A stretch of 64,000 bases of DNA from a virus (IMGVR_UViG_2724678985_000012); one strand, 5' to 3'. Shown: positions 1,015 through 25,524, numbered from the stretch's first letter. Numbers and translations are program-made. Notes: a model not told the origin generated them from the sequence alone.

Positions 1015-1460
1015 TGGGTAACTTTGGAAATTATTTCATTTTTATCATGGCATTTGTTGCCATCATTGACCGTTTCATTTTTCGTCGCAAGAGTGTTGAG
1101 ATTTTGAGTATTGGTGACGCTGTAGTGAAAGAATCCGCTATAGCATTTCCTGTTTCGCTACGTGTTAAGCGAAGCTGGGTCAGCAATGCTCAAATCGAAT
1201 ATTGGTTGCAAGACCTGAAAAATCCATCTGTGGTTATTTCAGGGAAAACGCGACCAGTTGACGCCTCAAAACGCGGTGAGAGAGAAGAGTATTTGCTCAT
1301 CGATACGAAATATCTTGAGCCAACGAAGTGGGATCTGAAAGTCACATTGACTAACGGTAACTGCCGACTGAATCCGCTTTATCGCATTTTCCCTATCAAT
1401 GACTGCATAGAGCGCCAGTTTACGATCGAAAAGCGTGAAGGAGACTGGGATGTCAAATAA
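1014..1460 (+). CDS. hypothetical protein (LydB-like antiholin by position)
   Basis: 148 aa, start overlaps upstream stop (TAATG), N-terminal hydrophobic segment. Confidence 0.3.
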   Translation: MGNFGNYFIFIMAFVAIIDRFIFRRKSVEILSIGDAVVKESAIAFPVSLRVKRSWVSNAQIEYWLQDLKNPSVVISGKTRPVDASKRGEREEYLLIDTKYLEPTKWDLKVTLTNGNCRLNPLYRIFPINDCIERQFTIEKREGDWDVK

Positions 1461-2070: not shown

Positions 2071-4000
2071 CAATCCTTTACGAATTAATATTCAGTCTAC
2101 TTTTGCTGATACGATCCCCGGCTATATGCCAAGTCGCTGGTCTTCAGAAGAATTAAGCGAAGATGACCTGATTTTTGAGGCGGCGACCTTAGAAGATATT
2201 GAGCTTGCCTATATGGGCAATGAAATTCTGGTTGTGTCTGACGAAGCTATGTTTGAGTCCATAACTACAACCAGAATTCGGTTAGCTCAAACAATGCGAG
2301 CTTTCGTCCGTGCGCTGAATCGTGGCCTGAATGGTACGAATATTATGGCAGGGACTGATGAAGCTGGGACCGATGAAAATGGACGTAATTGTATTGGTGG
2401 TGCGATTATCGGTCGTGTACGTCGGGTAGCTAATATCCCTGTTTTGACCGCGCAGATACCGCTTACTGACGGGCAGAGTACAAGCATAATTTTCCACTCT
2501 CCAACAGCTGACGGGGCAAAAATAAAGAGTAACGACGAGCTTGTTGCATTTCAGTTTTTACTTAATAAGCGTAACGTAACTCACGTTGTCGCCCCGATTG
2601 GTGGGAGAGATGTTTCTTTAAGCCAGGTATGCCAGGCGCTATCTAATTTGATTGAGCGTAACAGCGAAAAATTTAAGAAAGCAAAAGAGCGCCAGGACAA
2701 AATGAAGGCAGATATTGAGAGTTATCTCAATGAAGCAGATAAACTGGCAGAAGAACGGTCAATAATGATTGATCAGGTGGAAGTTGCGCAACGTGGGCTG
2801 ACTGAAAAGCGTGCTGCTCTTACGGAGATGCAAAAAAAACTTGATGCCCAGAAAGCTATCAATGAGGAGTTACAAGCAAAACGCGATAAATTGTTGTCTT
2901 CTAAAGGAGAAAAAACGAAAGAACGAGCGTTTAGTGACCAGCTGCGACATGTAAAACATAATCTTGCCATTGACGGAAAAACAGTGCTGGATAATGGCGC
3001 TGAAGTTAATTATGTCACGTCCGGCAGTGACAATTTCGTTACGATAGTAGCACCTGAAGGTAAATTCAGTATTGATGCCAGTGCTGTCAAAGGAGGCAGT
3101 TTGGCAGATGCTGCAACCAAATTACTTAAAGCCTACCGAGAGCATAACGCAGAAAAATATAAAGTTGATTTGTTACCAGGCCAGCTGGAAGACTCCGAAC
3201 CACCACAGACGGACCCCGAAACAAACCCAGTATCACAACCAGAGAGCCAAGATGTAGGTAAATACCACTATGCACTTCAATCTCGCCCGGCTGGTGTTGG
3301 TGCTGTTCCGGATGGAAATAAAGCCGTGCTTGATCGTCCTGACCAGGCTGATCAGTATTACGAATATGCTCGTCACGGTATCATTACGTATGACCGTAAA
3401 CTGACAGATGAAGAAGTCAGCCAGTACGAGTTGCTTTATCTTCCTGATGAAGATGAGCTGAAAGATTTTGCAGGCCAATTGGTTGCGTCCAGCATGTCGA
3501 AACATATTGATGGCTATGTGGACCTGTTTGGCAGTGACCTGAAAACATTCAAGGCGCAAGTGAAAATTCTTTTCCGCAAAGCGTTTCCAAACGTGGCGTA
3601 TCCACTTAGTGATGGGGAGAACCTTTTCATTATGGACGTGTATAACGCCCTTCAAAATCATTCAAGCGAAGTAAAAACAGAGCATGTGGTTGAGCCAGAA
3701 TCACAACCACAACCACAACCACAACCAGCACCAGAACAGGAGTCGGAGCCAGAAGAAGCGGGTGAATCAGCAAGTGAAGCTGATCAGGAAGCAGATAAAG
3801 CGCTGGAGTACCTGAAATCCGTGCCGGAGCAGTTTACATCCCGCGATCTGACGGTCATCAGTGCTGAACTTGATCATGTGCAGGAAGCAGCAAACGCTCT
3901 AATCAGTGCAGGTCGATACGACGAGAACGAAGCCACTGTGGGTGCAGCAGTTGACTACCTGATCAATATTCTGGCTGAAATTCAGCAGGGAGGTGTTTAA
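2057..4000 (+). CDS. large coiled-coil protein, candidate DarA-like internal head / antirestriction protein
   Basis: about 647 aa, central coiled coil, acidic QP-repeat linker; size and synteny with P1 darA operon. Confidence 0.35.
   Translation: MSMINNPLRINIQSTFADTIPGYMPSRWSSEELSEDDLIFEAATLEDIELAYMGNEILVVSDEAMFESITTTRIRLAQTMRAFVRALNRGLNGTNIMAGTDEAGTDENGRNCIGGAIIGRVRRVANIPVLTAQIPLTDGQSTSIIFHSPTADGAKIKSNDELVAFQFLLNKRNVTHVVAPIGGRDVSLSQVCQALSNLIERNSEKFKKAKERQDKMKADIESYLNEADKLAEERSIMIDQVEVAQRGLTEKRAALTEMQKKLDAQKAINEELQAKRDKLLSSKGEKTKERAFSDQLRHVKHNLAIDGKTVLDNGAEVNYVTSGSDNFVTIVAPEGKFSIDASAVKGGSLADAATKLLKAYREHNAEKYKVDLLPGQLEDSEPPQTDPETNPVSQPESQDVGKYHYALQSRPAGVGAVPDGNKAVLDRPDQADQYYEYARHGIITYDRKLTDEEVSQYELLYLPDEDELKDFAGQLVASSMSKHIDGYVDLFGSDLKTFKAQVKILFRKAFPNVAYPLSDGENLFIMDVYNALQNHSSEVKTEHVVEPESQPQPQPQPAPEQESEPEEAGESASEADQEADKALEYLKSVPEQFTSRDLTVISAELDHVQEAANALISAGRYDENEATVGAAVDYLINILAEIQQGGV
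3703..3728 (+). repeat. in-frame hexanucleotide microsatellite (ACAACC)x4 encoding a QP repeat
   Basis: cacaaccacaaccacaaccacaacca inside the 2057-4000 ORF. Confidence 0.8.
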
Positions 4001-4368
4001 TGACCATCTCTGTTTTAGACCGCCTGAAATTAGGTAAAGAGCTATCAGATCTAATGCAGGCGCAGAAAACTGCGCCAGTATTGCAACGCGTCACCATTGG
4101 TAAGCAGATTGTTGATGTGATGCTGAAATTGGGCCTGGGGACTGCCGCGCAACCGGCAGCGGAACCGCAACAACAGGCTGATCCTGTTGTAGATGAAGTC
4201 CCTAAGATAGTGACTGACTTCCTGGGCGGTGTGTTCACAAAGTCCACACAAATGGAATTTATTGATGCGCTGCGTGGGATCTCAAACTATGTTGGCGAGT
4301 TCCTTACGTTGGAGCAGGCTAAAGAGCAGACCATAAGCTGGGTGAAAGCTAACGGTTATGCCGGGTAA
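4000..4368 (+). CDS. hypothetical protein
   Basis: 122 aa ORF, ATG overlapping upstream stop; hairpin downstream. Confidence 0.4.
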   Translation: MTISVLDRLKLGKELSDLMQAQKTAPVLQRVTIGKQIVDVMLKLGLGTAAQPAAEPQQQADPVVDEVPKIVTDFLGGVFTKSTQMEFIDALRGISNYVGEFLTLEQAKEQTISWVKANGYAG

Positions 4369-4450: not shown

Positions 4451-5848
4451 TTGGAGTGTATTTTGAACAAATCAGTTACTTCTGCGCTTTCCGAGGCCGC
4501 AGATATTAACAGCGTCATTGCTCTGGTTTCTTCATTAGAGAGGAAAGAAACACGCCTGGGGCGAAGTAGCTACGTAGTCACCAGCAAAGGTGCAGAGGTA
4601 AAGACGGCTTTTAAGGTCGTTGACGCCAGCAGTCTGATCATTTCGAACAACCTTGACGGTGCGATTAACCCGGCCTTCCCGGAAGAACTCCAACCACGAG
4701 ATCGTACCCGGCTATCCAGCAAACTCCAGGTTAACCGTATTGCCTCCAATTTACGCCCGGCACAATTAACGGATTCCGGTATGAGCAGCCACGGAGCGCC
4801 TATAGTTGGTCCGGACAACGTTGTTGAATCCGGCAACGGAAGGAGTATGGGTATCTGGCGTGCCTATGAGCAAGGACAGGCGGATGAGTATCGCCAGTAC
4901 CTGATCGACCATGCGAAAGAGTTTGGTCTGAATCCTGACGAAATTTCGCAAATGTCTATGCCCGTACTGGTGCGAGAAAGACTCACAGATGTAGACCGCG
5001 CTCAATTTGCCCGCGATTCAAACATTAGTGATCTGCAAGAGATGGCAGCAAGTGAAAAAGCGTATGCGGATGCGCAATTTCTCACTGAGAGCGTCATGGC
5101 GCTATTTAATCCTTCAGATGATGGAAATCTGCTGGCGCGGTCCAATGATGCGTTTATTCGTGCGTTTTTGCGCGAAATTGGCGATACAGCGATGGCAGGC
5201 TTGCTTACTGCCGATGGGCGTCCCACGAAACAGCTTATCGATCGCATCCAGAATGCAATTTTTGCCAAAGCGTACAAGGATGAAAGGCTTGTTCGGCTGG
5301 TGTCGGAAGAGCCAGATCCGGAAATGCGTAATATCCTGACCGCATTAAATACGGCAGCCAGCGATTTTGCGCAAATGCAGTCGCTGTCTGGCGACGCTCA
5401 CCATGACGCAGTAACAGGCTTAGTGGACGGTATAGAGCAGGTTAATGGCCTGGATACACAGGCGATAGCAGCACTCCAGGAAGCAATTAATCTTGTTCGT
5501 GAAGCCAAAGACAACGGTCAGGCCGTTGAAGAAGTGATCGCCCAAAGGGGGTTATTCGGCGACAGTACACCGGAAGCTGAGGCATTGGCGCTATTCATCG
5601 TAGCAAATAATCGCAGTGCGAAGCGTATGGGGGCAGCATTCAAAAAAATGGCGCAAAAAATCAACGACGAGCTGACTCATAAACAACAGGCATTGGGCGA
5701 TATGTTCGGCGGTGGCGATGTTGATCTGCGTCGTATTTTGTCTGCTGTATCTGATGAAATTGAGGGTGAATTTGGCGAAGGGAAAGGTCTGAACTTTGCT
5801 ATGTTTGAAAATTCTACAGATCTAAATAATTGCCGTACGGAAAACTAA
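4451..5848 (+). CDS. ParB/Srx-like nuclease-domain protein
   Basis: 465 aa; N-terminal motifs PAFPEELQPRDR and VVESGNGRSMGI resemble ParB N-domain boxes; alternative TTG start. Confidence 0.45.
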   Translation: MECILNKSVTSALSEAADINSVIALVSSLERKETRLGRSSYVVTSKGAEVKTAFKVVDASSLIISNNLDGAINPAFPEELQPRDRTRLSSKLQVNRIASNLRPAQLTDSGMSSHGAPIVGPDNVVESGNGRSMGIWRAYEQGQADEYRQYLIDHAKEFGLNPDEISQMSMPVLVRERLTDVDRAQFARDSNISDLQEMAASEKAYADAQFLTESVMALFNPSDDGNLLARSNDAFIRAFLREIGDTAMAGLLTADGRPTKQLIDRIQNAIFAKAYKDERLVRLVSEEPDPEMRNILTALNTAASDFAQMQSLSGDAHHDAVTGLVDGIEQVNGLDTQAIAALQEAINLVREAKDNGQAVEEVIAQRGLFGDSTPEAEALALFIVANNRSAKRMGAAFKKMAQKINDELTHKQQALGDMFGGGDVDLRRILSAVSDEIEGEFGEGKGLNFAMFENSTDLNNCRTEN

Positions 5849-5912
5849 ACCAACCGCTGAAATCACATACTGATTATGCTGCCGCAAAACTGGAAACAAT
5901 TTGCGGTGATTC

Positions 5913-7595
5913 ATGGCAACGAAAGACAAAAACAAAGGCTTTCTGTCAGCATTGAAGAAAGCCTTCAACGGTGGTGATGTTACGCCCGCCGATCCGGTCG
6001 TTTTTACGAGCGGGCATAGTGTCGTTGCTCGTTCCGGCCTGTCTGCTTTACGCCCAGGTATACTGGGGAGCAACAGCGATGGCATGACGAGTGCAGCAGA
6101 TTCAATTTCTTTATCCTCTGAACTGCCCGGCGAGCGCCTGCAAAAGTACAACATCCTGGAAACGATGGCTAAAAGCCCGACTATCTCGACGGCTTTAAAT
6201 ATTCACATTGCACATGCGCTTGCGCCTTCAAAAAAAACCGGACAAGCATTCATCCTTTCGCCAAAGGATGGTTCCGATGCTGAGGCAGTAAGTAGATGTG
6301 AAGAGTTAACTGCTGATTTGGGGGCGATGATTAATGACGGACTTCCTTCATGGGCCATGATTATGGCGATCTTTGGGGTGTCTTATGTCCGCCCTTATGC
6401 TGAACAGGGCAGGGGGATAACAGGCATTGAGTCCAGTTATTACACTCTGCCACACTTCGTCCAGGAGTTTTATCGTGGTAGCCAGCTGGTAGGTTTCAGT
6501 GGTGATTACATCCTGGATACGCATAGTTTGCGCAGAGTAATAACCGAACCGTGGAATCTGGTTTCCATGAAAAATCCCTATTGGACGCCGCAGCATAAAG
6601 TTATTCCGGTCAGCTACGGCACAAAAGGGTACTCACTGTTAAGTGAGCAGGCTGATAAGCCGTTAATGGAGACGCAGAATTACGGAACTTCATTCCTTGA
6701 ATACAGCTATGAACCTTACCTGAATTTATGTGCTGCGCTCGCCGCGCTGAAATCAACGCGAAATAATGCAGCCAAAATTGACCGCCTGATTGCTCTTACG
6801 ACGAACACACTGGACCCGGTTAATGCGGCGAACTATACGCGTGGCGTCAGCCAGGCATTGAAGCGACATAGTGACCTGGTGGCGCAAAGGTCGATTAATG
6901 CCAACGCTATTCCGACGGTGCTTAACCACCTGATACCTGTTATGGGAGACGGGAAGAACGGTATCACTATTGATACGCAATCCATACCCGCAGATATCAG
7001 TGGTATCGAAGACGTTATGTTTCACCTCCGGCAGCTTGCTGCAAGCCTAGGCATTGACGCAACAATGCTTGGCTGGGCTGATCAGATGAGTGGTGGACTT
7101 GGGGAAGGCGGTTGGCAGCAAACAGCTATCCAGGCCGCATTACGTGCGAACTGGATCAGACAGGCCGCGCAGCGAACTATTTATCGGCTTCATGATATTC
7201 ACCTCGCTTATAAATACGGGAAGGTTTACACCGAAAAAAACCGTCCTTATGACGTGCAATTCAACTCAATGAACACTGCTATCCAGGAAGAGGAAAACCG
7301 GGAACTGGATGCACGCGCCAACTTTGTTGCTGTCATCTCCCAAATTATGGACCAGATCCAGAACAACCCGAAACTGGCTGGTAGTGACGCGTTTATGCGT
7401 TATCTGTTCACCGAGCAGTTGCACATCGACGATGACACTCTCAACACCATGATCAAAGAGTTTAAGGCGAATGAATCAGAGCAAAACAACGAGCATGGTA
7501 TGTACGAATCCGCGCCGTTGTCGTCCGGTGACGATCCGGAAAACTGGACGCCAGAACAGTTAATAAACTTTGCAAAATTTGTGATGAGCAATTAA
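5913..7595 (+). CDS. putative portal protein
   Basis: 560 aa, acidic C-terminus, followed by protease/scaffold-like gene; P1 prt-pro-like synteny; not motif-verified. Confidence 0.4.
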   Translation: MATKDKNKGFLSALKKAFNGGDVTPADPVVFTSGHSVVARSGLSALRPGILGSNSDGMTSAADSISLSSELPGERLQKYNILETMAKSPTISTALNIHIAHALAPSKKTGQAFILSPKDGSDAEAVSRCEELTADLGAMINDGLPSWAMIMAIFGVSYVRPYAEQGRGITGIESSYYTLPHFVQEFYRGSQLVGFSGDYILDTHSLRRVITEPWNLVSMKNPYWTPQHKVIPVSYGTKGYSLLSEQADKPLMETQNYGTSFLEYSYEPYLNLCAALAALKSTRNNAAKIDRLIALTTNTLDPVNAANYTRGVSQALKRHSDLVAQRSINANAIPTVLNHLIPVMGDGKNGITIDTQSIPADISGIEDVMFHLRQLAASLGIDATMLGWADQMSGGLGEGGWQQTAIQAALRANWIRQAAQRTIYRLHDIHLAYKYGKVYTEKNRPYDVQFNSMNTAIQEEENRELDARANFVAVISQIMDQIQNNPKLAGSDAFMRYLFTEQLHIDDDTLNTMIKEFKANESEQNNEHGMYESAPLSSGDDPENWTPEQLINFAKFVMSN

Positions 7596-9838: not shown

Positions 9839-10019
9839 TTTGCTGTTTCTAAATCGGAATGTATGATCTGCATCATCGACTGAAGTCATCCATTGCTGAA
9901 ATTTTTAGTTGATCTTCCATGTTTTCAGGCTTATATTCATGCCGTCGTAGCAAATTCTGCGACCAGGTTTGACAGCCTGAATGTTAGTGCGGACAACCGC
10001 AGATTTCCGATATTGCGGT

Positions 10020-10183
10020 ATTTTTGTGTCCGTAAACCGCGTTACGCCCGAATTATGGTGGGGCGTGATGGGGAGGCTTCGGCCTGCTGGTTTCACTAAC
10101 GCCAGTCTGTCAACCCTGTCACGTCCTGCCACCTGTTTGACAGCGGGTAGCAGGTTGTTAAACCTGTTAGTGAGGCCGTAACT
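10020..10183 (+). ncRNA. c4-like antisense RNA / icd leader region of immI module 1 (boundaries approximate)
   Basis: structured leader directly upstream of icd-like ORF; internal complementary segments GGTTTCACTAACGCC / CCTGTTAGTGAGGCC. Confidence 0.3.
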
Positions 10184-11320: not shown

Positions 11321-11346
11321 GCCCCGGCCTGGCCGGGGCTTTTTTC
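11321..11346 (+). terminator. rho-independent terminator after immI module 1
   Basis: gccccggcc-t-ggccggggc hairpin followed by TTTTTT. Confidence 0.7.
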
Positions 11347-11830
11347 ATGCCTCATTAGTTGAGGTTGCTGCGTCTCCGACTGGTAACAGAGCGGTATTGT
11401 GTGGTTCGCCAGCAGGCCAGCGATAGCCAGACACTCTTGATGTTGGGAATGCGCGAATATTAACCGCATCCCCCTGGTTCCCACCCAAGACAAGCAGATC
11501 GCCATTGGCGCGGCGTCCGACAACGAAGCCTACGTGCCCACCGCCTACGCGGGTAAATACAACGATACATCCGTATGCCGGTGTATCTAATTTCTCGCCC
11601 CAATCCAGATAGGATTTTGCCGACTCAAATCTTGTTGAGCGGATGCCTACACGTTCCAGCATTGCACCGACAAATGCTGCGCACCACGGCGTTTCATCGT
11701 CTTTAATTCCGCCGCGCTTGATGTCGCGCCAGAACTGAACGATTTCAGGGTTGTGTTTAGCGCCTTTTATTTCAGTCAGGCCAATGTGCTTACGGGCTTC
11801 AATTAGCCAGCGAGGTTCAATGTTTGCCAT
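11345..11830 (-). CDS. TIGR02594-family (NlpC/P60-like) putative cell-wall hydrolase
   Basis: 161 aa; PWCAAF Cys and GGHVGFVVG His motifs characteristic of this phage-associated family. Confidence 0.5.
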   Translation of the reverse strand: MANIEPRWLIEARKHIGLTEIKGAKHNPEIVQFWRDIKRGGIKDDETPWCAAFVGAMLERVGIRSTRFESAKSYLDWGEKLDTPAYGCIVVFTRVGGGHVGFVVGRRANGDLLVLGGNQGDAVNIRAFPTSRVSGYRWPAGEPHNTALLPVGDAATSTNEA

Positions 11831-11981
11831 ATTTTTCTCCCGGTAATGGGTTAATAAGTAGGCAAACTATGGGGAGTATGTGATTTTGACGGTAGTATCG
11901 TCCCCCTGAAAATAACATTCTCCATACCCTCTCAACCGTACCGCATAGCGGAATTTTTTACGGTTTAGAGGGGGAAATCCT

Positions 11982-14900
11982 TTGGACAAACTACTTCATT
12001 CAATCAGTGAAGCCTCCAGCTTAGGCGAACTGATTGAAATTGTTAGTCGGTTGCATAAATTACGTGCTGTTGCGACCTTTGGCGTCAGGAAAGCCGATGG
12101 CGTCAGTATTCAGAAAACACGCCGGGCAGCAAACAATGCCGCAGTAAATCTTCTTAATTCCCTTCCGCCCGGCTTCGATGGGGCGAAATTAACTGACGAA
12201 CAACGTCAGATTCTTGCCGGGTATACCGGTGAAGGCGGCCTGACAGATGGTGAGGGCAGCCAATACGAATACTACACGCCACAGTTTATGGCTGAAGGTA
12301 TATGGGATCTGTTTGCTGACTACGGTATTGATGGCGGGCACGTACTGGAACCATCAGCGGGCACAGGTATTTTCCAGGAGACAAAACGGCAGGGCATGAT
12401 AATGACCAGCGCCGAACTGTCTCCGATTTCCGGTCGAATAAACCAGCTTTTGCACCCGGAAGACGATGTGAATATCGGGGCGTTTGAGGCGCTGGCGGCG
12501 AAAGACGCAATGTATGATCACGCTGTAGGTAACGTACCGTTTGGTGAAGGGCGTTCCGGTGTCGCCGGGCTTGATCCGGCATATGCAAACGAGAAGAACG
12601 TTGGCAATTACTTTGTGCTGCGCACGATCGACAAGGTTAAGCCTGGTGGGCTTATCGTATTGGTGGTGCCGAATGGCATGACCGATGGTGCGAAATATAA
12701 AAAATTGCGCGATAAAGTCAGCCGTAAAGCGGAATTTTTGGGCGCACATCGTATGCCTTCTGGTACGTTCAGCGAATCCGGTACAGATACCGTGGTGGAC
12801 GTATGGGTATTGCGTAAACACCCGGAAACCTTCCTGGAGATGATCCCCGACACGGATGATTCAACACTCAAATCGGCAAACGTCCTTTGGGATACCTTCC
12901 TCAAAGGAAAATGGTTTACAACCGAAGGGAAGCGATTTGTTTACGGCGACATGGAACGTACCAGCTTCCGCAATACCCTGGTGGTGAAAAAAGACGGTCG
13001 TGTATCCAATGAGTCGATGAAAACCGCGCTATCTCGTCGCTTTGATAGTCGCATCAATTGGGATTTGCTCGGCGTAACTACTCAGGCATGGCAGGGCGCG
13101 AAAGTGGGCGATAAACGCCTTGTAGGCGGTATCTGGCATGAGTTTGATGGTCTGAAATGGGTTAAGGACACGACAACCAAATCCTCCGCGCTTGATGTAA
13201 GTCGATATGGTGTTTCGACGTTTGGCGATCTGCAGATCGCGTTCCAGTCAACAAACGGGATTCTGGCTTTGTCATGGGACCAGATATCGGCGATCGCGTC
13301 CGACTATCCATCGGTTGTCAGTGATGAAGTGGCAGCAATGATTCGCTTTGCTGGCAAGCAGCGAGAAAAAGACAGGGAGCGCGTTATGCGCGGTGCGCTG
13401 ATAGGTCAGTTGATCAACAAGGCACTTGATTTGCGTAACCTGGGTGTGAACGTTGATGACAAACTGGCAGATGCATCCCGCCTGGCGGCAGCAGAAGTTG
13501 CGAAGTATGGACCACCGCACGCCATTAAGCTGAATGGGCTTGCTGAAGCTGGCGCTAAAAACTGGATGACGTTCACTGGCAATGTGAAACAGGATGGTTC
13601 CACTTCTGACCTTCTGGCAGGGCGACTTGATGTAACGGATGGTGCTGCCGGTATTGACTTTACACGTCCTGAACAAGTGATAGCACATCTTTTCAGTGAT
13701 GTAGCCCTTAATCCTATAACGCTGGGAGACTTTCGTGAGGCGTTTGCTGGTGAACTGCCAGAGGACGACGACGCGGCCCTTGAATACCTGGCGAAATTTG
13801 ATGATATCGCTATTGATGGGTATGGCTGCCTGCTGCCGATGGACCGCGCCACCAGCGGCGATATTGCAACCAAAACAGCATTGCTGATGGGCTGGCGTGA
13901 TGCGTCAACAGGTGAGCAGAAAGCGAACTTTGAGCGTCAGTTGGCGAAAATCGAAGAGAAACGTATTTTCACGCCACTAAATAAAGTCACCGTTAATCTG
14001 AATGCCCGCTGGCTGGATCGCCGCTTGATAAAAGAGTTCCTGGCAGAGCAGGGCTATGACGAGTTTAAGTACACTGAACCTGATCTGAAGGTCGTCGATG
14101 GCATTCTGGTATCTCCGGACGATTACGAAGGTAAGGACGGGGTATTTACCGGCTATCAGCTACGAACCGTAAACGGCAAAAACGGGAATGAGTTCAAGAA
14201 GGCCAACAATAAAGACGGCTTCCTGAACCAGTTAGAAAACTACCTGAACGGTGTTAAACCGCGTGGGCAGAACGCTAACGAGTACCTGGATAAAATTGCT
14301 CAACTGGAAGTTAGTTTTAACGACTGGTTACGCACTCACCCGCAGGCTGATCAGATAGCCCGCGAGTATAACGACGCATTCAATGGTTTCATTCCGTTCA
14401 CGCATTCTGACGCACCGCTTGGCCTGGAAGGGCTTAGTGGAAAGCGCATTCCTCTTACTTATCAGAATGAAGAAGTTCGGCGCTTGTCAGAAGATGGGCG
14501 CGGCATCATGGGATTTGGTACCGGGCTGGGTAAAACCACGACCGCGCTTGCGCTTGAGGCGTATAACTTCGAAACAGGTCGCACTAAACGCACGTGTATT
14601 GTTGTTCCGAAGGCGGTTTATCAGAACTGGTATCACGAGGCACAGAGTTTCTACAGTGCTGATGCCTTCGCCAATATGATGTTTATCGGTTTGGATGAAG
14701 TTCGTGATGACAGCGGAAATATTCTGACCGCGCCGGTGCTTGATGAAAATGGCGAACCACGCCTCGACAGTAACGGGCAGCCTCTTACCAGAAATGTTGT
14801 GAAAGAGTCCGCCAGCGCCGTTATCGTTCAGCGCATGAACATGATCCCGTCGTCAAATTGGCGAACGGTCATCATGACAAAAGAACAATTCGCGTCTATC

Positions 14901-17900
14901 CCGCTACGAGAAAAAACCATCGAGGAGAACTCACAGCAAGCTGTCTTTAATGCTGTGGAAATGGGGCGTCTTGACCTGGCGTCCGGTAAACACCGTGATG
15001 CGCAGAAGAAGAACAAGATTAAGGATCAGGCCGCGAATACCGGTACAACGAAGAAGCAGAATATCCCGTACTTTGAGGATATGAACTTCGATAGCGTGAT
15101 TGCCGACGAGGGGCATAACTACCGCAACTCCTTTAATGCCGGGCGTGAAGCGGGACAACTGGCATATTTGCCTAACCCGGCAGTATCCAAGATGGCCCGC
15201 GACATGGCTGTAAAAGCTGCGTACATGATGAAACGCAACAACGGGCGTGGTGTAGTCATGCTGACGGCAACTCCGCTGGTGAACAGTCCGATTGATGCCT
15301 TCAACATGCTGTCTACTGTCATTCCGCAGGAAGAGTGGATGCGCATGGGCATCATTACGCCTGATGATTTCGTTCGTGTGTTTGGCAAAACAGCCACAGT
15401 TCAGGTCCAGAAAATTTCCGGGGAAGTGGAAGAGAAGCAGGGGCTGGTGGGCTTCCAGAACCTTGACGGCCTGCGTGGTATTTTCCATCGTTGGACCACT
15501 CTGAAGACTGCTGCAGATGTCGGAGCAACGGTTAAAATTCCCGACATCATTGAGAACACCTTGCAGATCCCGATGACAGGGGAGCAGGAGACTGCTTATG
15601 AAGAGCTTCGTAAGCGTGCTCAGGAGTTAAGTCGCAATGATGAGCTGACAGTCGATGAAAACGGGCATATCACTAACGACAAACCGGATGATTTCATCTT
15701 CTCCATCATCCGTGACATGGACAAGGTTGCTATAGACCCGGATCTGTATGCCAGTGCGATTACATTCCAGTTCCCCGTTGAGCTTGCAGACCAGGTAAAA
15801 GCTATTGCTGATGCCTTGCCAAAAGTAGCTGGCGGTAAAGTGGCAGATGATGTTGATGAGGCCGAGGAAGACGGCGCTGGCGGGCTGGTCAGTACGCGTA
15901 CCAGCAAGGTAGTGAAGACCGCTTTTAGTGAACATCCGACGCATGTTGAAATACGTGCCAGCATTGAACTGGAAGCTGAAATACTTAAGGCCATTGCGGC
16001 TGCCGGTATTGATATGCAGCAGGTATCGCACCCCATCCCGCCGAAGTATGCCGCGCTGATCGAAAATCTTCGTGAAGGTCTGAAGAACGGTAAGCAGATC
16101 GTCTTTATTGATGAAAAAGCCCAGCACCAGAAGCTGCGCCGTATTATCGCCAGTGCACTGCAAATGCCGGAGCAGGAGATTGGCATTATCAATGCGACGA
16201 CAGTTAGCCAGGCTGGCGGCATCAAGCTGAAGAAGGTGAATAAGCCGACCGAACCTACTCCAAACAAAAACGGTGAATACAAAGAAGGGGCATGGGAAAC
16301 CTACTACAGCAAACTTGCCCAATATGAGGATTATCTCTCAGCCAAAAATGATGCTGGCCTTGAGGGCATGGAAGGTATTGCCGCCGACTATAACGAAGGT
16401 CGCACGCGCATCATAATCTGTAACAAGAAGGCTGAAGTAGGTATTAACCTGCACATCGGGACAACCGATATCCACCACCTGACACTACCCTGGACACCAG
16501 CCAGTATCGACCAACGAAATGGGCGCGGTGCGCGCGTAGGTTCACCGCAAGAGAAGGTCAATGTTCACTACTATTGTGGCAAAGGCACATTCGACGACTT
16601 CCGTCTGGATACGCTGAAACGTAAGAAAGACTGGATCAAGATGGTGATGACCTCCGACATGTCAGAGATCGCCAATGGTGATGCGGATGATGCTGATGAA
16701 CGCGCCATTATGCTGGCGGCAAACCCGGAAGAACGCCGCGCAATCATGGCTCGCCAGGCGCAAGAGCGTGAAGAACGTCTGAAACTGAAAGCACAGCGCG
16801 AGGCCAACAATGCTCTCGATATCTACCTGAAAGCGGCAAACGCCGCCGGAAAAGATATCGGCATGATGGAGACAGAACTGAAAAGCGCGATGGAACAGAT
16901 AGAGTATTACCAGCGCAATCTTGACGACCTGATAAAAGCGGGTACGAACAGGAATGGGCAAAAATACGCGCTTGAGCAGTTGAGTAGCTACAGAAAACGT
17001 GCGCGGGTGCTGAAGTTTGCGATCACCAGGGCAAAAGACGCGGATACCATAATGAAACGCTCTCGTGGTGATGTGGAGCGCGCTATTAAGTCTGGTGTGC
17101 TGGATATCAGTATCGATGTTATTCAGAACCCACAGGAATATATGCGCACTGACAAGAATATCCTGTTGCATAAAGGTAGTTATTACCGTGCAGTCATTGA
17201 TGATCGCGAAACAACAGCGATTGTCCGGGTGGAAAAAATTGACGGTGAAAAAGCACAATACATCTGCCGTATCGCCTGGCTGGATAGAGCAAGTCGTTAC
17301 GCTCGATCACCGGGGTCAATCGTTACATTGCCGTTTGACTCTGTGATTGAAGCGGTAACTTTTGAAGAGGGGGTAGCTGAATCGCGCGCAACGGCTGCGC
17401 GTGGTGTTCAGTGCCACCAGCTATCAACGTCACTTACTCGCGATCAGTTCTATGATGCTATTCGTAACGGAGTAATGAAGGTCACTACAGGCCAGCCTGG
17501 TAGAGCATGGGGCGGTGAACCAGGTATTAAATACTGGGCCTATCGCACCGATGATGGTCAGATCGCGCTGTCATCGACCTATGATGGCATGATAGGACAG
17601 AAAATCGGGCGTACATCGGATATTGCACCAGAGCAGTGGATTTACCCTGATATCAACAATGAGGCGCTGAAGCGTGAAGTGGCAAAAATACAAGCCAGTG
17701 ATAATCCGCTGAATATCGTGGACGGAGAGGGATTCCTCCAGGCATTGTATGGGTATGATTACATCCAGGGAATGCAGGCATGGGGCGCACAAGCAACGAT
17801 GGATGATGTTGCCCAGGAGTTCGAAAACTGGATGGCTGGGCGTGGTCTGTCAGGTCGCTCGCTTAATAAAGTCACTTCTGAAGATATTCTTAGCTTGTTC

Positions 17901-18818
17901 CGCAAACCGTCCGGAGAAGGTCTGGAATCATTCTGGAGGACCGTGCTGGCATACCGTTTATTCCAGGGCAGGATGAAAGCCTTTAGCAATATCGATGATA
18001 TTGAACGGATGTTTAATCAGGTCAAGATAGCGAAAATTAAGACGAAGATCGAAAAAACACGTTCTGCGCTGGTGGCCTGGCGCGATGCATTGTTTGAGCA
18101 ATATAAATCACTCAGTGATGCAGATGGATGGGCGGCATTGGAACAGCTGGCGAATAATGGGGTAGATGGAGCGAAACTCGCCATTGTTCAGGCTGATAAC
18201 CCCCTGGAATCACCGGCAGCACAGTGGATTAAGGTGGGGGCTGTCATCAATGCATTTGATGAAAAATACATTAGTAAGGACGATTTTGCTGATGCTGTTT
18301 CTGTTAATCGCCTGGTAGAAATGGCTACCCGCCGCGCCCGTGAGTTGAAAGACGGCGACTATGTGAATGAGTTGCCGGATACGCTCAAATCGGCAACGTG
18401 GCAGGACTATGTATCGCTGAAAAACGGCGGGGCCACTGAATCAGAGATCGCGGAAAGGCTTGAGCAGGCTGAAAGCAAAAGAGAAGAGCAGGCGGCAGTG
18501 GCTGAAGCCAGAGCTGATGAAGCGGCGAATGATGACTATATCATTGTGGTTAATGATAAGCCGATTCGCGCTAAGGCGCGTGTTCGCGGGCGCTGGTGGA
18601 GCGTCAGCGAGGACGTTGGCGCGGTTTATCTCATTGCCGACCAACCAGGTTCCTCGACAATACGGAACGCCAAAGACGCGATTAAGAAGATTGGCGGGCG
18701 TTTCTGGAATTTTGAAGCAAACCCGGTTGCTGATGTGAACTTTGACCGTCCTGCATGGATGGTATCTACGCGTTACTCGGTAGATGAACTGCGTAAAATA
18801 ATCGCCGATGCGGCCTAA
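11982..18818 (+). CDS. darB: DarB-like giant N6-adenine methyltransferase + DExH helicase fusion (antirestriction)
   Basis: 2278 aa; TTG start with AGAGGGGGA SD; MTase motifs EPSAGTGIF and NVPFGE; helicase motifs GFGTGLGKTT and ADEGHNYRN. Confidence 0.8.
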   Translation: MDKLLHSISEASSLGELIEIVSRLHKLRAVATFGVRKADGVSIQKTRRAANNAAVNLLNSLPPGFDGAKLTDEQRQILAGYTGEGGLTDGEGSQYEYYTPQFMAEGIWDLFADYGIDGGHVLEPSAGTGIFQETKRQGMIMTSAELSPISGRINQLLHPEDDVNIGAFEALAAKDAMYDHAVGNVPFGEGRSGVAGLDPAYANEKNVGNYFVLRTIDKVKPGGLIVLVVPNGMTDGAKYKKLRDKVSRKAEFLGAHRMPSGTFSESGTDTVVDVWVLRKHPETFLEMIPDTDDSTLKSANVLWDTFLKGKWFTTEGKRFVYGDMERTSFRNTLVVKKDGRVSNESMKTALSRRFDSRINWDLLGVTTQAWQGAKVGDKRLVGGIWHEFDGLKWVKDTTTKSSALDVSRYGVSTFGDLQIAFQSTNGILALSWDQISAIASDYPSVVSDEVAAMIRFAGKQREKDRERVMRGALIGQLINKALDLRNLGVNVDDKLADASRLAAAEVAKYGPPHAIKLNGLAEAGAKNWMTFTGNVKQDGSTSDLLAGRLDVTDGAAGIDFTRPEQVIAHLFSDVALNPITLGDFREAFAGELPEDDDAALEYLAKFDDIAIDGYGCLLPMDRATSGDIATKTALLMGWRDASTGEQKANFERQLAKIEEKRIFTPLNKVTVNLNARWLDRRLIKEFLAEQGYDEFKYTEPDLKVVDGILVSPDDYEGKDGVFTGYQLRTVNGKNGNEFKKANNKDGFLNQLENYLNGVKPRGQNANEYLDKIAQLEVSFNDWLRTHPQADQIAREYNDAFNGFIPFTHSDAPLGLEGLSGKRIPLTYQNEEVRRLSEDGRGIMGFGTGLGKTTTALALEAYNFETGRTKRTCIVVPKAVYQNWYHEAQSFYSADAFANMMFIGLDEVRDDSGNILTAPVLDENGEPRLDSNGQPLTRNVVKESASAVIVQRMNMIPSSNWRTVIMTKEQFASIPLREKTIEENSQQAVFNAVEMGRLDLASGKHRDAQKKNKIKDQAANTGTTKKQNIPYFEDMNFDSVIADEGHNYRNSFNAGREAGQLAYLPNPAVSKMARDMAVKAAYMMKRNNGRGVVMLTATPLVNSPIDAFNMLSTVIPQEEWMRMGIITPDDFVRVFGKTATVQVQKISGEVEEKQGLVGFQNLDGLRGIFHRWTTLKTAADVGATVKIPDIIENTLQIPMTGEQETAYEELRKRAQELSRNDELTVDENGHITNDKPDDFIFSIIRDMDKVAIDPDLYASAITFQFPVELADQVKAIADALPKVAGGKVADDVDEAEEDGAGGLVSTRTSKVVKTAFSEHPTHVEIRASIELEAEILKAIAAAGIDMQQVSHPIPPKYAALIENLREGLKNGKQIVFIDEKAQHQKLRRIIASALQMPEQEIGIINATTVSQAGGIKLKKVNKPTEPTPNKNGEYKEGAWETYYSKLAQYEDYLSAKNDAGLEGMEGIAADYNEGRTRIIICNKKAEVGINLHIGTTDIHHLTLPWTPASIDQRNGRGARVGSPQEKVNVHYYCGKGTFDDFRLDTLKRKKDWIKMVMTSDMSEIANGDADDADERAIMLAANPEERRAIMARQAQEREERLKLKAQREANNALDIYLKAANAAGKDIGMMETELKSAMEQIEYYQRNLDDLIKAGTNRNGQKYALEQLSSYRKRARVLKFAITRAKDADTIMKRSRGDVERAIKSGVLDISIDVIQNPQEYMRTDKNILLHKGSYYRAVIDDRETTAIVRVEKIDGEKAQYICRIAWLDRASRYARSPGSIVTLPFDSVIEAVTFEEGVAESRATAARGVQCHQLSTSLTRDQFYDAIRNGVMKVTTGQPGRAWGGEPGIKYWAYRTDDGQIALSSTYDGMIGQKIGRTSDIAPEQWIYPDINNEALKREVAKIQASDNPLNIVDGEGFLQALYGYDYIQGMQAWGAQATMDDVAQEFENWMAGRGLSGRSLNKVTSEDILSLFRKPSGEGLESFWRTVLAYRLFQGRMKAFSNIDDIERMFNQVKIAKIKTKIEKTRSALVAWRDALFEQYKSLSDADGWAALEQLANNGVDGAKLAIVQADNPLESPAAQWIKVGAVINAFDEKYISKDDFADAVSVNRLVEMATRRARELKDGDYVNELPDTLKSATWQDYVSLKNGGATESEIAERLEQAESKREEQAAVAEARADEAANDDYIIVVNDKPIRAKARVRGRWWSVSEDVGAVYLIADQPGSSTIRNAKDAIKKIGGRFWNFEANPVADVNFDRPAWMVSTRYSVDELRKIIADAA

Positions 18819-18854: not shown

Positions 18855-19289
18855 ATGACGACATTAATTGACACTGTAAAACCGACGGAATCCTACCTTG
18901 AGGACATTTTGCCGCAGGCGCTCAATGGCAGGAGTGAAGAAGAATACCTGACAGTTTATCTTGATGGCATGGTAGAAAGACTGAAGAAAAATCCACAGCT
19001 TTATCACCTTTATGGGCCGTGGTGGCCTGCGCTTAAAACGTTATTGCTGGAGCGCGGCGACATATCATTTGGACAAGTTGTAGATAGTGATGTGGCAGAG
19101 ATCTACAAAATGAGTCGCCCGGCGCTTACGGTTTTGGCTGGGCATCTGTATTCGAGCGATCGCCTGGGAAATGACGCGGTATACAATCCCGTTCATGCTC
19201 TGGAAGTCGCACCTTATGCTGATGATACAGAGCCATACGTGTACATAAGTTACGACGAGTCTATAGAGAAATATCGAATCATGGGGTAG
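18855..19289 (+). CDS. hypothetical protein
   Basis: 144 aa ORF immediately downstream of darB-like. Confidence 0.4.
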   Translation: MTTLIDTVKPTESYLEDILPQALNGRSEEEYLTVYLDGMVERLKKNPQLYHLYGPWWPALKTLLLERGDISFGQVVDSDVAEIYKMSRPALTVLAGHLYSSDRLGNDAVYNPVHALEVAPYADDTEPYVYISYDESIEKYRIMG

Positions 19290-19291
19290 CC

Positions 19292-19552
19292 ATGCGAAAG
19301 AATCGTAGGTTTACGGTCGAAGACCTAAAGGAATATTCCATATCGAAGGGGTATATCCTTGAGTTCCACCGATACAAGAAGGTTTTTACGCTGCGAAAAG
19401 CAGAAAACCCTGCGAACTGGAGCTGGATATACTTTCCTCACACCGATGATAAGTTGGTAGAACTTGTTGATGATTTAACCTATGAAGGTTGGTTGATCGC
19501 AATCGACAAGACAATCAAAGAATTATCCGAACAGGATAAAATAACCCTTTAA
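19292..19552 (+). CDS. hypothetical protein
   Basis: 86 aa ORF, tightly coupled to upstream gene. Confidence 0.4.
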   Translation: MRKNRRFTVEDLKEYSISKGYILEFHRYKKVFTLRKAENPANWSWIYFPHTDDKLVELVDDLTYEGWLIAIDKTIKELSEQDKITL

Positions 19553-22032: not shown

Positions 22033-23249
22033 ATCACAATTCGAATGTATTGATTGTGGAGATAACTTAACATAGAATTTTCCTTGCTGGTGGGCAGTAC
22101 CCACGTTTCGCTTGCTGGGCTTGATAGTCACTTATTGGTTATTGTTCGCCCACCAGCATTTAACAAATTAAAGTGTTAGAAAAGTATGGTAATGCAAGAG
22201 CACGCTTTGGCACCGTGCAGGCCAAAGTTCAGCAGGTTTAGTGCGGAAAGTGGTTTCAGAGAGAGCACTTTGCGGAGTAAACGACAATACATGTTGAGCC
22301 ACGGAAGGTCTTTTTAAGGTGTTCATTGATGATGGTCCGGCAGAGAGTAACGGTACATGCTGCATCTAATCATCAATGCACATCTTCAACATTAAGGAGG
22401 CATAGGGATTTTTGTGGCGGTTACCTTTTGCCCTGAGTCTCCTTAATGTTGCGGTAATGCACCTATGCGGATGTGGCCTTGCATTGTGTCTTGAAAGAAT
22501 GGGGTAAGGCCGGGGATATCCCCAGGGGGAGGCACCCCCGCTGCAACGAACAGCCACAGACGGCAGTCGAGTGATGGAAACGTGTAAAGACTTTAAACCT
22601 CGTTACGGCTGGCGTGGCAAACGCGACAACCGAGACAGAGCGGTGACGGGCGGAGAGAGTGCCGCATCAAGAAAGAAGCCGACTTGTGATCCCTTTCTGC
22701 GGGCATTTGAAAGTGAATCCAGCTCAGGCAGTCGGCTTCTTTCTTGTGTGAGATGTAGCGTATTTGCCCATCTTCGGGTGGGCTTTTTTAGGGTTTTCGT
22801 CATGGTTAGCGACTTTGCGGCGGTTTAGAAACCGACCATTAAAGTAAATGCAAACGATGATCTGATGATGGTAGCGGCCTAAGAAGCCAGACGCCACGGG
22901 GTATGAGTCGTCCCCCGTCAAAAAATCGACCGCAGAGTGTCCCCGTCTGTGTATTAGGGAACGGGGAGGCATAACAGGCAAGGGCGCTGGTGTGATTAAC
23001 CAGATGAATGAGAAGGGTCAGGTCTTTCTGGTCAGCGCCCTTACCTGTTACGTCCCTCCCGCGTAACAGCCATTGATTAATGGCTTTCTGGGATAACATC
23101 CTACTACGGGTATATCCCGTCATGCTGAAGGCGCTAATCACGCTGGAAGCCAGGGTTGTGCATCCCCTGTTACCGAATTGCAGCCAGGGCGCGGTGCGCC
23201 GAAAAGCATACGGAGGTGGAAGCCCTCGCCGGAGACGTACCCGGCAAGT
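22033..23249 (+). other. about 1.2-kb GC-rich non-coding leader of the tRNA array with many stable hairpins; candidate structured ncRNA
   Basis: no convincing ORF (only short low-complexity frames); multiple perfect 10-14 bp stems and terminator-like gcccatcttcgggtgggctttttt near 22763. Confidence 0.4.
22171..22187 (-). promoter_or_regulatory. C1-operator-like motif site 6
   Basis: AAGTGTTAGAAAAGTATGG. Confidence 0.45.
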
Positions 23250-23326
23250 GATGGTGTAGCTCAGTAGGATAGAGCAGCAGCCTTCTAAGCTGTCGGTCGG
23301 TGGTTCGAATCCACCCACCATCGCCA
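23250..23326 (+). tRNA. tRNA-Arg (anticodon UCU)
   Basis: 77 nt cloverleaf: acceptor GATGGTG/CACCATC, anticodon loop CTTCTAA, T-loop TTCGAAT, encoded CCA. Confidence 0.85.
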
Positions 23327-23331
23327 ATTTA

Positions 23332-23418
23332 GGGGAGTTAGTCCGTAGGGGTAGCGGGGTAGACTGTAAATCTACTGTCATTGCGACTCGGGTGGTTCGA
23401 CTCCATCACTCCCCACCA
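23332..23418 (+). tRNA. tRNA-Tyr (anticodon GUA), long variable arm
   Basis: 87 nt; anticodon stem-loop GTAGA-CTGTAAA-TCTAC as in E. coli tRNA-Tyr; acceptor GGGGAGT/ACTCCCC; CCA. Confidence 0.75.
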
Positions 23419-23422
23419 AATT

Positions 23423-23498
23423 GCCGGTTTAGCTCAGTTGGTAGAGCGCCTGCCTTGTAAGCAGGATGTCAGCGGTTCGAGTCCGTTAACCGGCACCA
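23423..23498 (+). tRNA. tRNA-Thr (anticodon UGU)
   Basis: 76 nt; acceptor GCCGGTT/AACCGGC; anticodon loop CTTGTAA; CCA. Confidence 0.85.
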
Positions 23499-23704
23499 AC
23501 ACAACAGGTAAGGGCATTCTCCCTTATGGGGCTTGGCTTAAATGCATCGAGTGCTCTTACCGTTGTGATGAAGTGCAGCTCTTTGAAGCAACCAGAAGAT
23601 AAGCATCTGGCTTCACAACATAAACCGCAGGAACGACCAATAAACGGTAGTCCGTATGGAGAACACCCCGTTGAGGAAGAGGCCTGGCCGGAACCGTAAC
23701 CGGC

Positions 23705-23803
23705 ACCACAACGTTGAGAACACTGGCGTAACGGGGTCATATCCCAATCTATGAATAAATGTTGCGTTGCAGCGTGACAACCAGTGTTCTCAACATTGTG
23801 GTG
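23705..23803. repeat. long inverted repeat (20-bp arms) of the tRNA-island leader/trailer repeat family
   Basis: CACCACAACGTTGAGAACACTGG ... CCAGTGTTCTCAACATTGTGGTG; related copies at 23498-23518, 23562-23592, 23881-23902, 24080-24111. Confidence 0.7.
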
Positions 23804-23900
23804 AATGCACAGGCTGATGTGCCGCAACTACAGTAGTGCGCGCTTTGCGGGGCTTGCTACAACCCTGTGTCGGAGTTCAGCACCGACCATCACAATCACT

Positions 23901-23987
23901 GGAGAGTAGGGAGCATGGTGCTCAAGCGGTCTTGAAAACCGTCCCATTGCGCAAGCGATGATGGTTCGATTCCATTACTCTCCGCCA
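23901..23987 (+). tRNA. tRNA-Ser (anticodon UGA), class II with long variable arm
   Basis: 87 nt; acceptor GGAGAGT/ACTCTCC; anticodon stem-loop GCGGT-CTTGAAA-ACCGT; CCA. Confidence 0.7.
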
Positions 23988-24250
23988 GTGCAACGTTAAG
24001 AGTATTTGGCTAATTAAGCGAATGCCGGAAGCAGAACCGGATCACCAAATGCGTACAGGCGTCATCGCCGCCCAGCCAGCCAAGTGCTCTTACCATTGCG
24101 GTGAATGCGGCTAAGCGCACGCGGAACAGTTAAAACAATCCTCCTTAGTGGTTAAGTCAAACATCCCGGCGTTAATTGTTAACTGGTTAACGTCACCTGG
24201 AGGCACCAGGCACCGCAGCTTTTTTATTCGGTAAATAATGGAGTGAGAGG

Positions 24251-25294
24251 ATGCAGAACAATCCGAACAAATGTCGAACGCTATGGGTGCGGTTATATAT
24301 TTATGTCGTCCTCTGTTTGATTGTGTCACTGGTTCTGTATGTTTGGCTTTTGCCAAATATGATCTCATCTGACAGCACAATACTTGTATTGTTGGGAGTC
24401 CTTCTCGCGCTCATTTACCCGGCTTTTGCAGTAGTCTTTTTTCGTGAAAAAACCAGGAAATTGATTAATGAAAAAACGTTGATTAGTGCAGCGATTATTT
24501 TTGGTTCTTTATGTCTGACCGGATGCGATCGGGTAGAGCCAGGTAACGTAGGGATCAAAGTAAATAAGCTGGGGGATGATAAAGGTATCGGTGAAGTAGT
24601 TGGCGTTGGTCGCTACTGGACAGGCTTGAATACTGAAGTTTATATCTTCCCGACCTTTAAGCAAATGAAGACATACGATGAGCCGTTCAGCTTCCAGATG
24701 AGCGACGGAACAACCATTGGTTACCACATCGGCGTAGCCTACAAGGTTGATCCAGCAAAAGTCACAACGGTATTTCAGACCTATCGCAAAGGTGTAGATG
24801 ATATTACTGATACCGATCTACGCCAGAAGGTTGCAGATGCTCTGAACCGGTTAGCCAGCAAAATGACCACCGACAAATTTATCGACGGTGGCAAATCTGA
24901 ATTGCTTGATGCAGCCCTTAAAGACATTCAGGAAGAAATGACGCCCATCGGTATTCAGGTAATGAGCCTCTCATATGTGGGCAAGCCGGAGTACCCGCCA
25001 ACCGTTATCGACAGCATTAATGCCAAAGTCACGGCGAACCAGAAAACTCTGCAACGCGAGCAGGAAGTCAAGCAACGCGAAGCAGAAGCCAACATGCTGC
25101 GCGCAGAAGCTGCTGGACAGGCCGATGCCATTCGCACAAAAGCCCAGGCTGAAGCTGATGCCATTCGTTTACGCGGTGAGGCTCTGCGCCAGAACCCCGG
25201 CGTTATGGAGTTGGAAGCGATCAACAAATGGAACGGAACGCTACCGCAGTATATGACCAGTAATACCGCTGTTCCGTTTGTTCCGGTGAAATAA
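24251..25294 (+). CDS. SPFH (band-7/prohibitin)-domain membrane protein
   Basis: N-terminal TM/lipobox-like LTGC; SPFH-like core then Ala/Glu-rich coiled coil; true start likely downstream (24358 or later). Confidence 0.55.
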   Translation: MQNNPNKCRTLWVRLYIYVVLCLIVSLVLYVWLLPNMISSDSTILVLLGVLLALIYPAFAVVFFREKTRKLINEKTLISAAIIFGSLCLTGCDRVEPGNVGIKVNKLGDDKGIGEVVGVGRYWTGLNTEVYIFPTFKQMKTYDEPFSFQMSDGTTIGYHIGVAYKVDPAKVTTVFQTYRKGVDDITDTDLRQKVADALNRLASKMTTDKFIDGGKSELLDAALKDIQEEMTPIGIQVMSLSYVGKPEYPPTVIDSINAKVTANQKTLQREQEVKQREAEANMLRAEAAGQADAIRTKAQAEADAIRLRGEALRQNPGVMELEAINKWNGTLPQYMTSNTAVPFVPVK

Positions 25295-25448
25295 CCAAAT
25301 AGATAACATGATGGAATTTTGGACGTTTGCCGACAAGAACCCTTGGTGGACATTTTTATTTCTGCTGGTGGTTGCATATGGGGTCGAGCAAGCAGCAAAA
25401 GCCTTACGCGGTCCTGGCAAAAAGCGTAAGCGGAATTAACAGTAATCT

Positions 25449-25524
25449 GGCCCTTTAGCTCAGTGGTTAGAGCTGGCGACTCATAATCGCACGGTCACCG
25501 GTTCAAGTCCGGTAGGGGCCACCA
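25449..25524 (+). tRNA. tRNA-Ile2 (anticodon CAU, ileX-like; Met not excluded)
   Basis: 76 nt; near-identical architecture to E. coli ileX; anticodon loop CTCATAA; CCA. Confidence 0.75.

Follow-up and report, generated by a model that had tools for sequence, protein, structure and literature searches.

A TTG-initiated darB orthologue of a D6-like, P1-related phage-plasmid, with predicted N6-adenine methyltransferase and SNF2 helicase domains

We analysed a 64,000-nt stretch of viral DNA (IMGVR_UViG_2724678985_000012; hereafter the window, with positions counted from its first letter), in which a single open reading frame (ORF) at 11982..18818 on the plus strand begins with TTG and encodes a protein of 2278 amino acids (aa). 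Judged by sequence, the window is a D6-like, P1-related phage-plasmid, and this gene is very probably its darB, with the role that DarB has in P1: the protein would be packaged in the capsid, ejected, and would protect DNA in cis against restriction of the EcoKI/EcoBI type. A P1-like role is the best explanation because the protein is an orthologue of P1 DarB and the window carries the full set of Dar genes. The gene itself is already known, as the darB homologue orf15 of phage D6; it has been sequenced and annotated many times and is widespread in D6-like phage-plasmids.

A first-pass annotation of this DNA, made from the sequence alone, had proposed a capsid antirestriction methyltransferase-helicase resembling P1 DarB, and direct comparison upheld that proposal. 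BLASTP aligned the protein with P1 DarB (AAQ13985.1, 2255 aa) from residue 1 of both, with 43% identity over 2001 columns. The similarity reaches beyond the generic domains, being present in the N-terminal, inter-domain and C-terminal regions. When identity to P1 DarB was computed in bins, it was 53–56% in the N-terminal and methyltransferase part, 29–47% in the inter-domain region, mostly 46–69% in the helicase (aa 801–1600; 43–44% at aa 1201–1400), and 20–31%, with many gaps, from residue ~1600 to the end. Similarity to P1 DarB continues into the C-terminal region at 29% identity, and the extreme C-terminus matches at 27% (E 0.002). Among PHROGs, the protein matched phrog_1685 over its full length and the P1-type family phrog_11801 strongly, and it also matched phrog_10089, "DarB-like antirestriction". 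The closest annotated relative, D6 orf15 (ASR76325.1; GenBank MF356679; Gilcrease & Casjens 2018), carries the annotation 'defense against restriction, similar to P1 darB'; it has the same length (2278 aa, 6837-nt coding sequence) and the same TTG start, its DNA is 98.6% identical over the full length, and 2246 of the 2278 residues are identical (99%).

The features of the gene and its product are as follows.

11982..18818 (+): darB orthologue, 2278 aa, 252.8 kDa, TTG start
11968..11974 (+): Shine-Dalgarno (S-D)-like GAGGGGG, 7 nt ahead of the darB TTG, kept as GAAGGGGA in the Escherichia fergusonii allele
11982..12071 (+): codons 1–30, positional equivalent of the P1 DarB capsid-targeting sequence (the P1 DarB alignment begins at residue 1), with a presumed targeting function
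12264..12881 (+): predicted gamma-class N6-adenine DNA methyltransferase domain, ~aa 95–300 (Pfam N6_Mtase and Eco57I, motif positions, Foldseek matches)
aa 97–100 (+): TP motif YYTP (this and the following motifs by motif scan)
12348–12374 (+): methyltransferase motif I, EPSAGTGIF, aa 123–131
12531–12548 (+): methyltransferase motif IV, NVPFGE, aa 184–189
12882..14447 (+): inter-domain region, ~aa 301–822, without a Pfam match; many columns are invariant across homologues
14448..16571 (+): predicted SNF2-type superfamily 2 (SF2) helicase/translocase, ~aa 823–1530 (Pfam SNF2-rel_dom, ResIII and Helicase_C, motif positions)
14511–14540 (+): helicase motif I, GFGTGLGKTT, aa 844–853
15102–15128 (+): helicase motif II, DEGH, inside ADEGHNYRN, aa 1041–1049
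15261–15290 (+): helicase motif III, TATP, within aa 1094–1103
16512–16535 (+): helicase motif VI, QRNGRGAR, aa 1511–1518
16572..18815 (+): C-terminal region, aa 1531–2278, without a Pfam family
17412..17681 (+): recombination tract, codons 1811–1900

Both enzymatic domains that had been read from short motifs were recovered. The two methyltransferase motifs, EPSAGTGIF and NVPFGE, and all three of the proposed DExH/SNF2-like helicase motifs, GFGTGLGKTT, ADEGHNYRN and QRNGRGAR, are present, and four Pfam domains (SNF2-rel_dom, ResIII, Helicase_C and N6_Mtase) scored above their gathering thresholds. A sequence search of the PDB gave a weak match of the helicase region to INO80 and no solved DarB structure. 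We modelled residues 1–830 with AlphaFold2 (AF2); the methyltransferase core was poorly predicted, with a predicted local distance difference test score (pLDDT) of 32–60, and the model gives no information on a target-recognition domain. A Foldseek search with this model nevertheless returned BsaXI, the BREX protein PglX/BrxX, type I HsdM subunits (EcoKI and Vibrio vulnificus), M.TaqI and CamA, with E values from 1e-5 to 1e-3. These modelled fold matches agree with the published placement of DarB methylases in an EcoKI/TaqI-like family with an N-terminal TP motif (PMC5512222), the TP motif included.

Comparison with an allele from E. fergusonii (94% aa identity) gave a ratio of nonsynonymous to synonymous substitution rates (dN/dS) of 0.05, with a dS of 0.69, over 2277 codons. 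Given this ratio over so many codons, the ORF is not a chance one. In every region of darB, the C-terminal third included, dN/dS lay between 0.03 and 0.20, and in the methyltransferase and helicase domains it was 0.03–0.05. From these substitution patterns we conclude that darB is under strong purifying selection over its whole length. The E. fergusonii gene (plasmid NZ_CP099330) is itself mosaic, with a dS of ~1.0 in codons 1–1530 and of 0.13–0.41 in the C-terminal third.

Listing and translation of ORFs recovered the single 2278-aa frame of the first-pass annotation, and the strong S-D sequence that it had described ahead of the TTG was located as well. The closest in-frame stop upstream is at position 11946, and the only start candidates in codons 1–130 are TTG at codon 1, TTG at codon 24 and ATG at codon 103. 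The first of these is well supported as the true start, because initiation at codon 24 or 103 would cost the protein the segment aligned with the N-terminal 30 residues of P1 DarB, and because the E. fergusonii allele keeps both the TTG and the G-rich S-D sequence despite diverged coding DNA around the start and an extra ORF upstream (372 nt, between the CHAP hydrolase gene and darB; L005 7862..8233 of NZ_CP099330). The same start is used by RefSeq/PGAP and by the authors of the D6 sequence. Start codons differ among homologues: TTG in the D6 type, ATG in P1 and, as annotated, GTG in the Pantoea pEuc3 homologue. The sole promoter candidate upstream of darB is a weak sigma-70-like site at 11886–11913. 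A late promoter of the P1 Lpa type was sought with the pattern AAGTKAYT-N5-TANNNT, built from three annotated P1 late promoters, and rejected: no match lies near 11831–11981, and the window holds 5 matches against 3.6 expected by chance.

All five other Dar genes, namely hdf, darA, ddrA, ddrB (half-length) and ulx, are present in the window. They are listed here with the ORFs that flank darB and ulx.

1435..2070 (+): hdf homologue, 40% identity to P1 Hdf; D6 orf28; the true start may lie within the ORF
2024..4000 (+): darA homologue, 39% identity to P1 DarA over 625 columns; D6 orf27; the true start may lie within the ORF
4000..4368 (+): ddrA homologue, 33% identity to P1 DdrA; D6 orf26
4451..5848 (+): half-length ddrB homologue, 465 aa, 64% identity over 447 aa to the first ~445 aa of P1 DdrB (995 aa); D6 orf25
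11345..11830 (−): CHAP-domain/TIGR02594 cell-wall hydrolase gene (Pfam CHAP 2.7e-7, TIGR02594 5e-42); D6 orf16; divergent from darB
18855..19289 (+): ulx homologue, 144 aa, directly 3′ of darB, 49% identity to P1 Ulx (E 8e-46); phrog_1629, 'Ulx-like anti-restriction'; D6 orf14
19292..19552 (+): 86-aa ORF in the place of P1 lxc, like D6 orf13; phrog_6844 (function unknown)

The hdf, darA, ddrA and ddrB genes adjoin lydA and lydB and lie near the portal and protease genes; in P1, hdf-darA-ddrA-ddrB are likewise in a lydAB-linked operon. Of the Dar proteins, DdrB is the best conserved when the D6 type is set against the P1 type.

In P1, DarB is a head protein, found by mass spectrometry at roughly 40–45 copies per virion, and its N-terminal 30 aa are enough to direct a reporter to the capsid (PMC9024508). 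The protein is believed to accompany the DNA into the cell, and deletion of darB renders the phage sensitive to EcoK and EcoB (PMC9024508, PMC12810830, PMC11109961, PMC12707154). By orthology, the 253-kDa DarB of the window would be made during lytic growth, its N-terminal ~30 residues would bring it into proheads with help from Hdf, DarA, DdrA, DdrB and Ulx, and it would be ejected with the DNA into the next host, where any packaged DNA would be protected in cis against family-IA type I enzymes of the EcoKI/EcoBI kind.

The domain content is generic enough to be compatible with a different role, as a non-packaged methyltransferase-helicase of replication, recombination or epigenetic methylation that acts in lytic growth or plasmid maintenance. 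The RefSeq/PGAP product name is only "SNF2-related protein", and repL lies ~2 kb from darB, both of which would suit such an enzyme. We consider this role very improbable, given that the P1 orthologue resides in virions (PMC9024508), that the gene is linked to ulx and the other Dar genes, and that the N-terminus aligns with the P1 capsid-targeting region. It is extremely unlikely, too, that the protein is a prophage-borne enzyme of host defence, or one akin to restriction-modification enzymes (the type ISP/IIG, DISARM, BREX or Zorya kind), which would shield the lysogen from other phages. PglX and BsaXI are among the Foldseek matches, and weak partial matches were obtained to type II methylases and to the helicases DrmD, ZorD, DpdE and BrxHII. 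These matches score 16–44 bits against curated cut-offs of 500–1100 and cover just helicase motifs I or V–VI; the best NCBIfam match, DrmD, reaches 44 bits against a cut-off of 610, and PADLOC matches reach at most 38 bits, again in helicase motifs only. Neither a nuclease domain nor partner genes of those systems were found nearby, and both the full-length collinearity with P1 DarB and the setting among head-morphogenesis and Dar genes speak against such an enzyme.

How a packaged DarB might act is suggested by its two enzymatic domains. For the family of proteins that join a methylase to an SNF2 helicase, Iyer et al. proposed a translocating methylase (PMC5512222). In the window protein, the ATP-driven SNF2 motor would track along the entering duplex and carry the HsdM/TaqI-like N6-adenine methyltransferase to target adenines, which would be methylated or occupied before type I translocation and cleavage. 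Alternatively, the motor may stall type I complexes or strip them from the DNA. We favour the model of Iyer et al. because both catalytic centres survive a sequence divergence of 57% and are under strong purifying selection.

The main rival is a DarB-like protein that gives physical protection only, coating or blocking the DNA or binding and sequestering type I complexes, with folds that serve as binding modules and not as active enzymes. Several observations would fit such a shield. Dar protection operates in cis only, which is the origin of an occlusion hypothesis (PMC12707154); the ~40 copies per virion (PMC9024508) are of the same order as the type I sites in the 64-kb window (8 for EcoKI and 15 for EcoBI); the specificity of DarB for family IA hints that a protein is recognised; and the methyltransferase fold resembles HsdM and PglX, which are subunits of systems that Dar counters. 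A passive role would not, however, be expected to yield a dN/dS of 0.03–0.05 in the catalytic domains, nor does it fit the retention of S-adenosylmethionine motif I, NVPF, Walker A, DEGH and motif VI in both the D6 and the P1 type despite 57% divergence. We therefore regard physical protection alone as a possible but rather unlikely explanation, and an enzymatically active P1-like DarB as the preferred one.

Several points nevertheless weigh against a P1-like DarB role for this gene. The mechanism of DarB is explicitly 'not defined' even in P1, and we found no experiment on D6 or on the present element. DarB is needed against family IA and not against EcoA, which is hard to square with purely non-specific methylation. 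The first 30 aa resemble those of P1 DarB only loosely (residues 6–10 are HSISE here and MGVFR in P1), DdrB is of half length, so that the Dar assembly pathway may differ from that of P1, and the AF2 models are low to moderate in confidence. Finally, the anti-EcoKI effect of plasmid-cloned darB was an artefact of the DNA, involving Chi sites and restriction alleviation, with no need of the protein (Skutel et al., PMC11109961).

The last of these points raises the question of whether antirestriction could come from darB DNA itself, with Chi sites causing ClpXP-dependent restriction alleviation and the protein being irrelevant. Such an effect was shown for plasmid-cloned fragments of P1 darB (PMC11109961), and darB of the window contains five Chi sites, three on the plus and two on the minus strand (28 and 15, respectively, in the whole window). 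The plasmid effect also required an EcoKI site (PMC11109961), and the 6.8-kb darB of the window has none; it equally lacks EcoBI and EcoAI sites, the latter occurring twice in the window. Moreover, the effect concerns resident plasmids and not infecting phage, and it cannot account for a 2278-codon ORF with a dN/dS of 0.05 and intact catalytic motifs. We find an explanation by DNA alone barely credible, and a DarB protein with the P1 role remains the better account of the gene.

The C-terminal third is the most divergent part of the protein. The first-pass annotation had given it about 900 aa, which proved too long: 760 aa follow helicase motif VI. We searched with the last 748 aa (aa 1531–2278). 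They belong to no Pfam family, and when 1.84 billion representative proteins were scanned exhaustively with HMMER, no more than 73 relatives came up, most of the matches spanning just query residues 1–100 to 1–230. Thirty-four of the 73 relatives are at least 2000 aa long, and all of these are matched in their own C-terminal part (starts 1452–1873); the remaining 39 are shorter proteins or fragments, matched elsewhere. A word-indexed search gave 13 matches, 12 of them close E. coli or Salmonella relatives and mostly fragments. On the evidence of the HMMER scan, the C-terminal module is specific to DarB-like proteins, because every long relative matches it at the same end.

In an AF2 model of the 748 aa (pLDDT 69.6, predicted template modelling score 0.39), the region is predicted to contain a long coiled coil, a pair of small beta-rich domains, a helical part and, at the terminus, an alpha/beta domain. 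With this model, Foldseek found zero matches in the PDB at E≤1e-3; one ~65-aa barrel bears a generic resemblance to Tudor, SH3 and KOW domains, which we treat as a lead only. The C-terminal third probably mediates contacts with the capsid, DNA or a target.

Within D6-like alleles, variation is greatest at aa ~1656–1900, a stretch that overlaps the predicted small beta domains. Nearly all of the divergence from D6 is concentrated in codons 1811–1900, and of the 32 substitutions that separate the protein from D6 orf15, 15 are grouped in codons 1817–1893. Diversifying selection was considered for aa 1811–1900 and ruled out: dN/dS is 0.22 there. Since dS is raised too (0.41 against ~0.03 elsewhere in the comparison with D6), codons 1811–1900 are a recombination patch. 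Because this part of the protein recombines among D6-like alleles and contains predicted small beta-barrel domains, we entertain, as a long shot, that the C-terminal third, especially aa ~1650–1900, is an exchangeable specificity module that decides against which systems, of restriction or of BREX type, a given DarB is effective, and that, together with the half-length DdrB, it makes the Dar of the D6 type a variant that differs in function from the P1 system.

The assignment of the window to a D6-like phage-plasmid follows from DNA identity to D6 and from identical copies on plasmids. Its first 24 kb are 97% identical to Escherichia phage D6, and about ten non-mobilizable E. coli and Salmonella plasmids of ~92 kb carry a darB whose DNA is 100% identical. 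At least 80% of darB is carried by 113 PLSDB plasmids and by 93 of 5,426 complete E. coli genomes. In plasmids NZ_CP050999.1 and NZ_CP027309.1, the otherwise identical gene has a 1-bp length difference and is annotated as two coding sequences (SNF2-related protein and hypothetical protein); these copies are either frameshifted pseudogenes or sequencing errors.

The neighbours of D6 orf15 match those of darB in the window, with the CHAP hydrolase gene upstream and ulx and orf13 downstream. D6 orf24 and orf23, which lie between ddrB and the portal gene in D6 (913..1847 of the D6 locus, L001), are absent from the window (5848..5913), where prt (5913..7595) directly follows ddrB. A tRNA cluster at 22763..25524 comprises Arg-tct, Tyr-gta, Thr-tgt, Ser-tga and Met-cat, and the D6 annotation has Asn, Thr and Ser. 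Positions 22763–25000 have no match to D6 but ~95% identity to phages of the P1 group, RCS47 and Ro157c2YLVW among them; this pattern of identity indicates that elements of the D6-like and P1-like kinds have undergone mosaic exchange.

The window contains two loci for C4 antisense RNA. The first, at 10051..10136, lies just upstream of icd/ant and has a1/b1 target sites at 9931..9983. The other locus, at 49340..49427, comes after an isrK-like small RNA match at 49217..49295. A strong GC-rich hairpin (8 of 8 pairs GC) followed by a T-run occupies 11321..11339, where the ant-operon ORFs end on one side and the CHAP hydrolase gene has its 3′ end on the other; it may act as a terminator in both directions.

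As a discovery the gene is of little value, since a darB homologue was already annotated in phage D6. Its use lies in the comparison of two orthologues, of the D6 and the P1 type, that are 43% identical: the inter-domain region is constrained, as are the catalytic motifs of the two enzymes, and the C-terminal third is the part that is free to vary and recombine. Such a map of constrained and variable parts could direct mutagenesis and structural studies of the way in which Dar overcomes type I restriction, and the functional annotation in RefSeq could be improved.

Set beside P1, the gene neighbourhood is partly conserved. The first-pass annotation had held that the placement of darB, divergent from a cell-wall hydrolase gene, differs from the ulx-darB arrangement of P1. 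The divergent hydrolase gene is as described, and the difference holds for this upstream neighbour, which in P1 is a divergent prt-pro; in the window prt, pro, repL and the c4-icd-ant region lie further upstream, on the same strand as darB. It does not hold for ulx, which directly follows darB in P1 as it does here. The 86-aa ORF after ulx is not Lxc, having no detectable similarity to it; Pantoea pEuc3 has a small ORF in a comparable place after its ulx homologue. The C-terminal half of P1 DdrB, in which a putative metallopeptidase region lies, has no counterpart in DdrB of the window.

The DarB proteins themselves are built alike. That of P1 and that of the window share a collinear N-terminal region, N6-adenine methyltransferase, linker, SNF2 helicase and long C-terminal region, and despite 57% overall divergence their catalytic motifs are identical or near-identical; the start codons differ, as described above. 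Type I HsdM, the BREX PglX methyltransferases and SNF2 remodellers such as INO80 and DrmD have folds and motifs in common with the window protein at the domain level only, and we found neither an HsdS- or HsdR-like partner nor a nuclease domain with it. The nearest wider relative is the polyvalent-protein 'DNA methylase-SNF2 helicase dyad' (LPD36-MTase-SF2; PMC5512222), in which an EcoKI/TaqI-like adenine methyltransferase with a TP motif is likewise fused to a SWI2/SNF2 ATPase. Outside the P1/D6 group, proteins with this dyad have other added domains, as in the 3764-aa Parlo protein and in phrog_10089 (a profile of 4647 positions), whereas the C-terminal 750 aa of the window protein are confined to DarB-sized proteins of ~2000–2480 aa.

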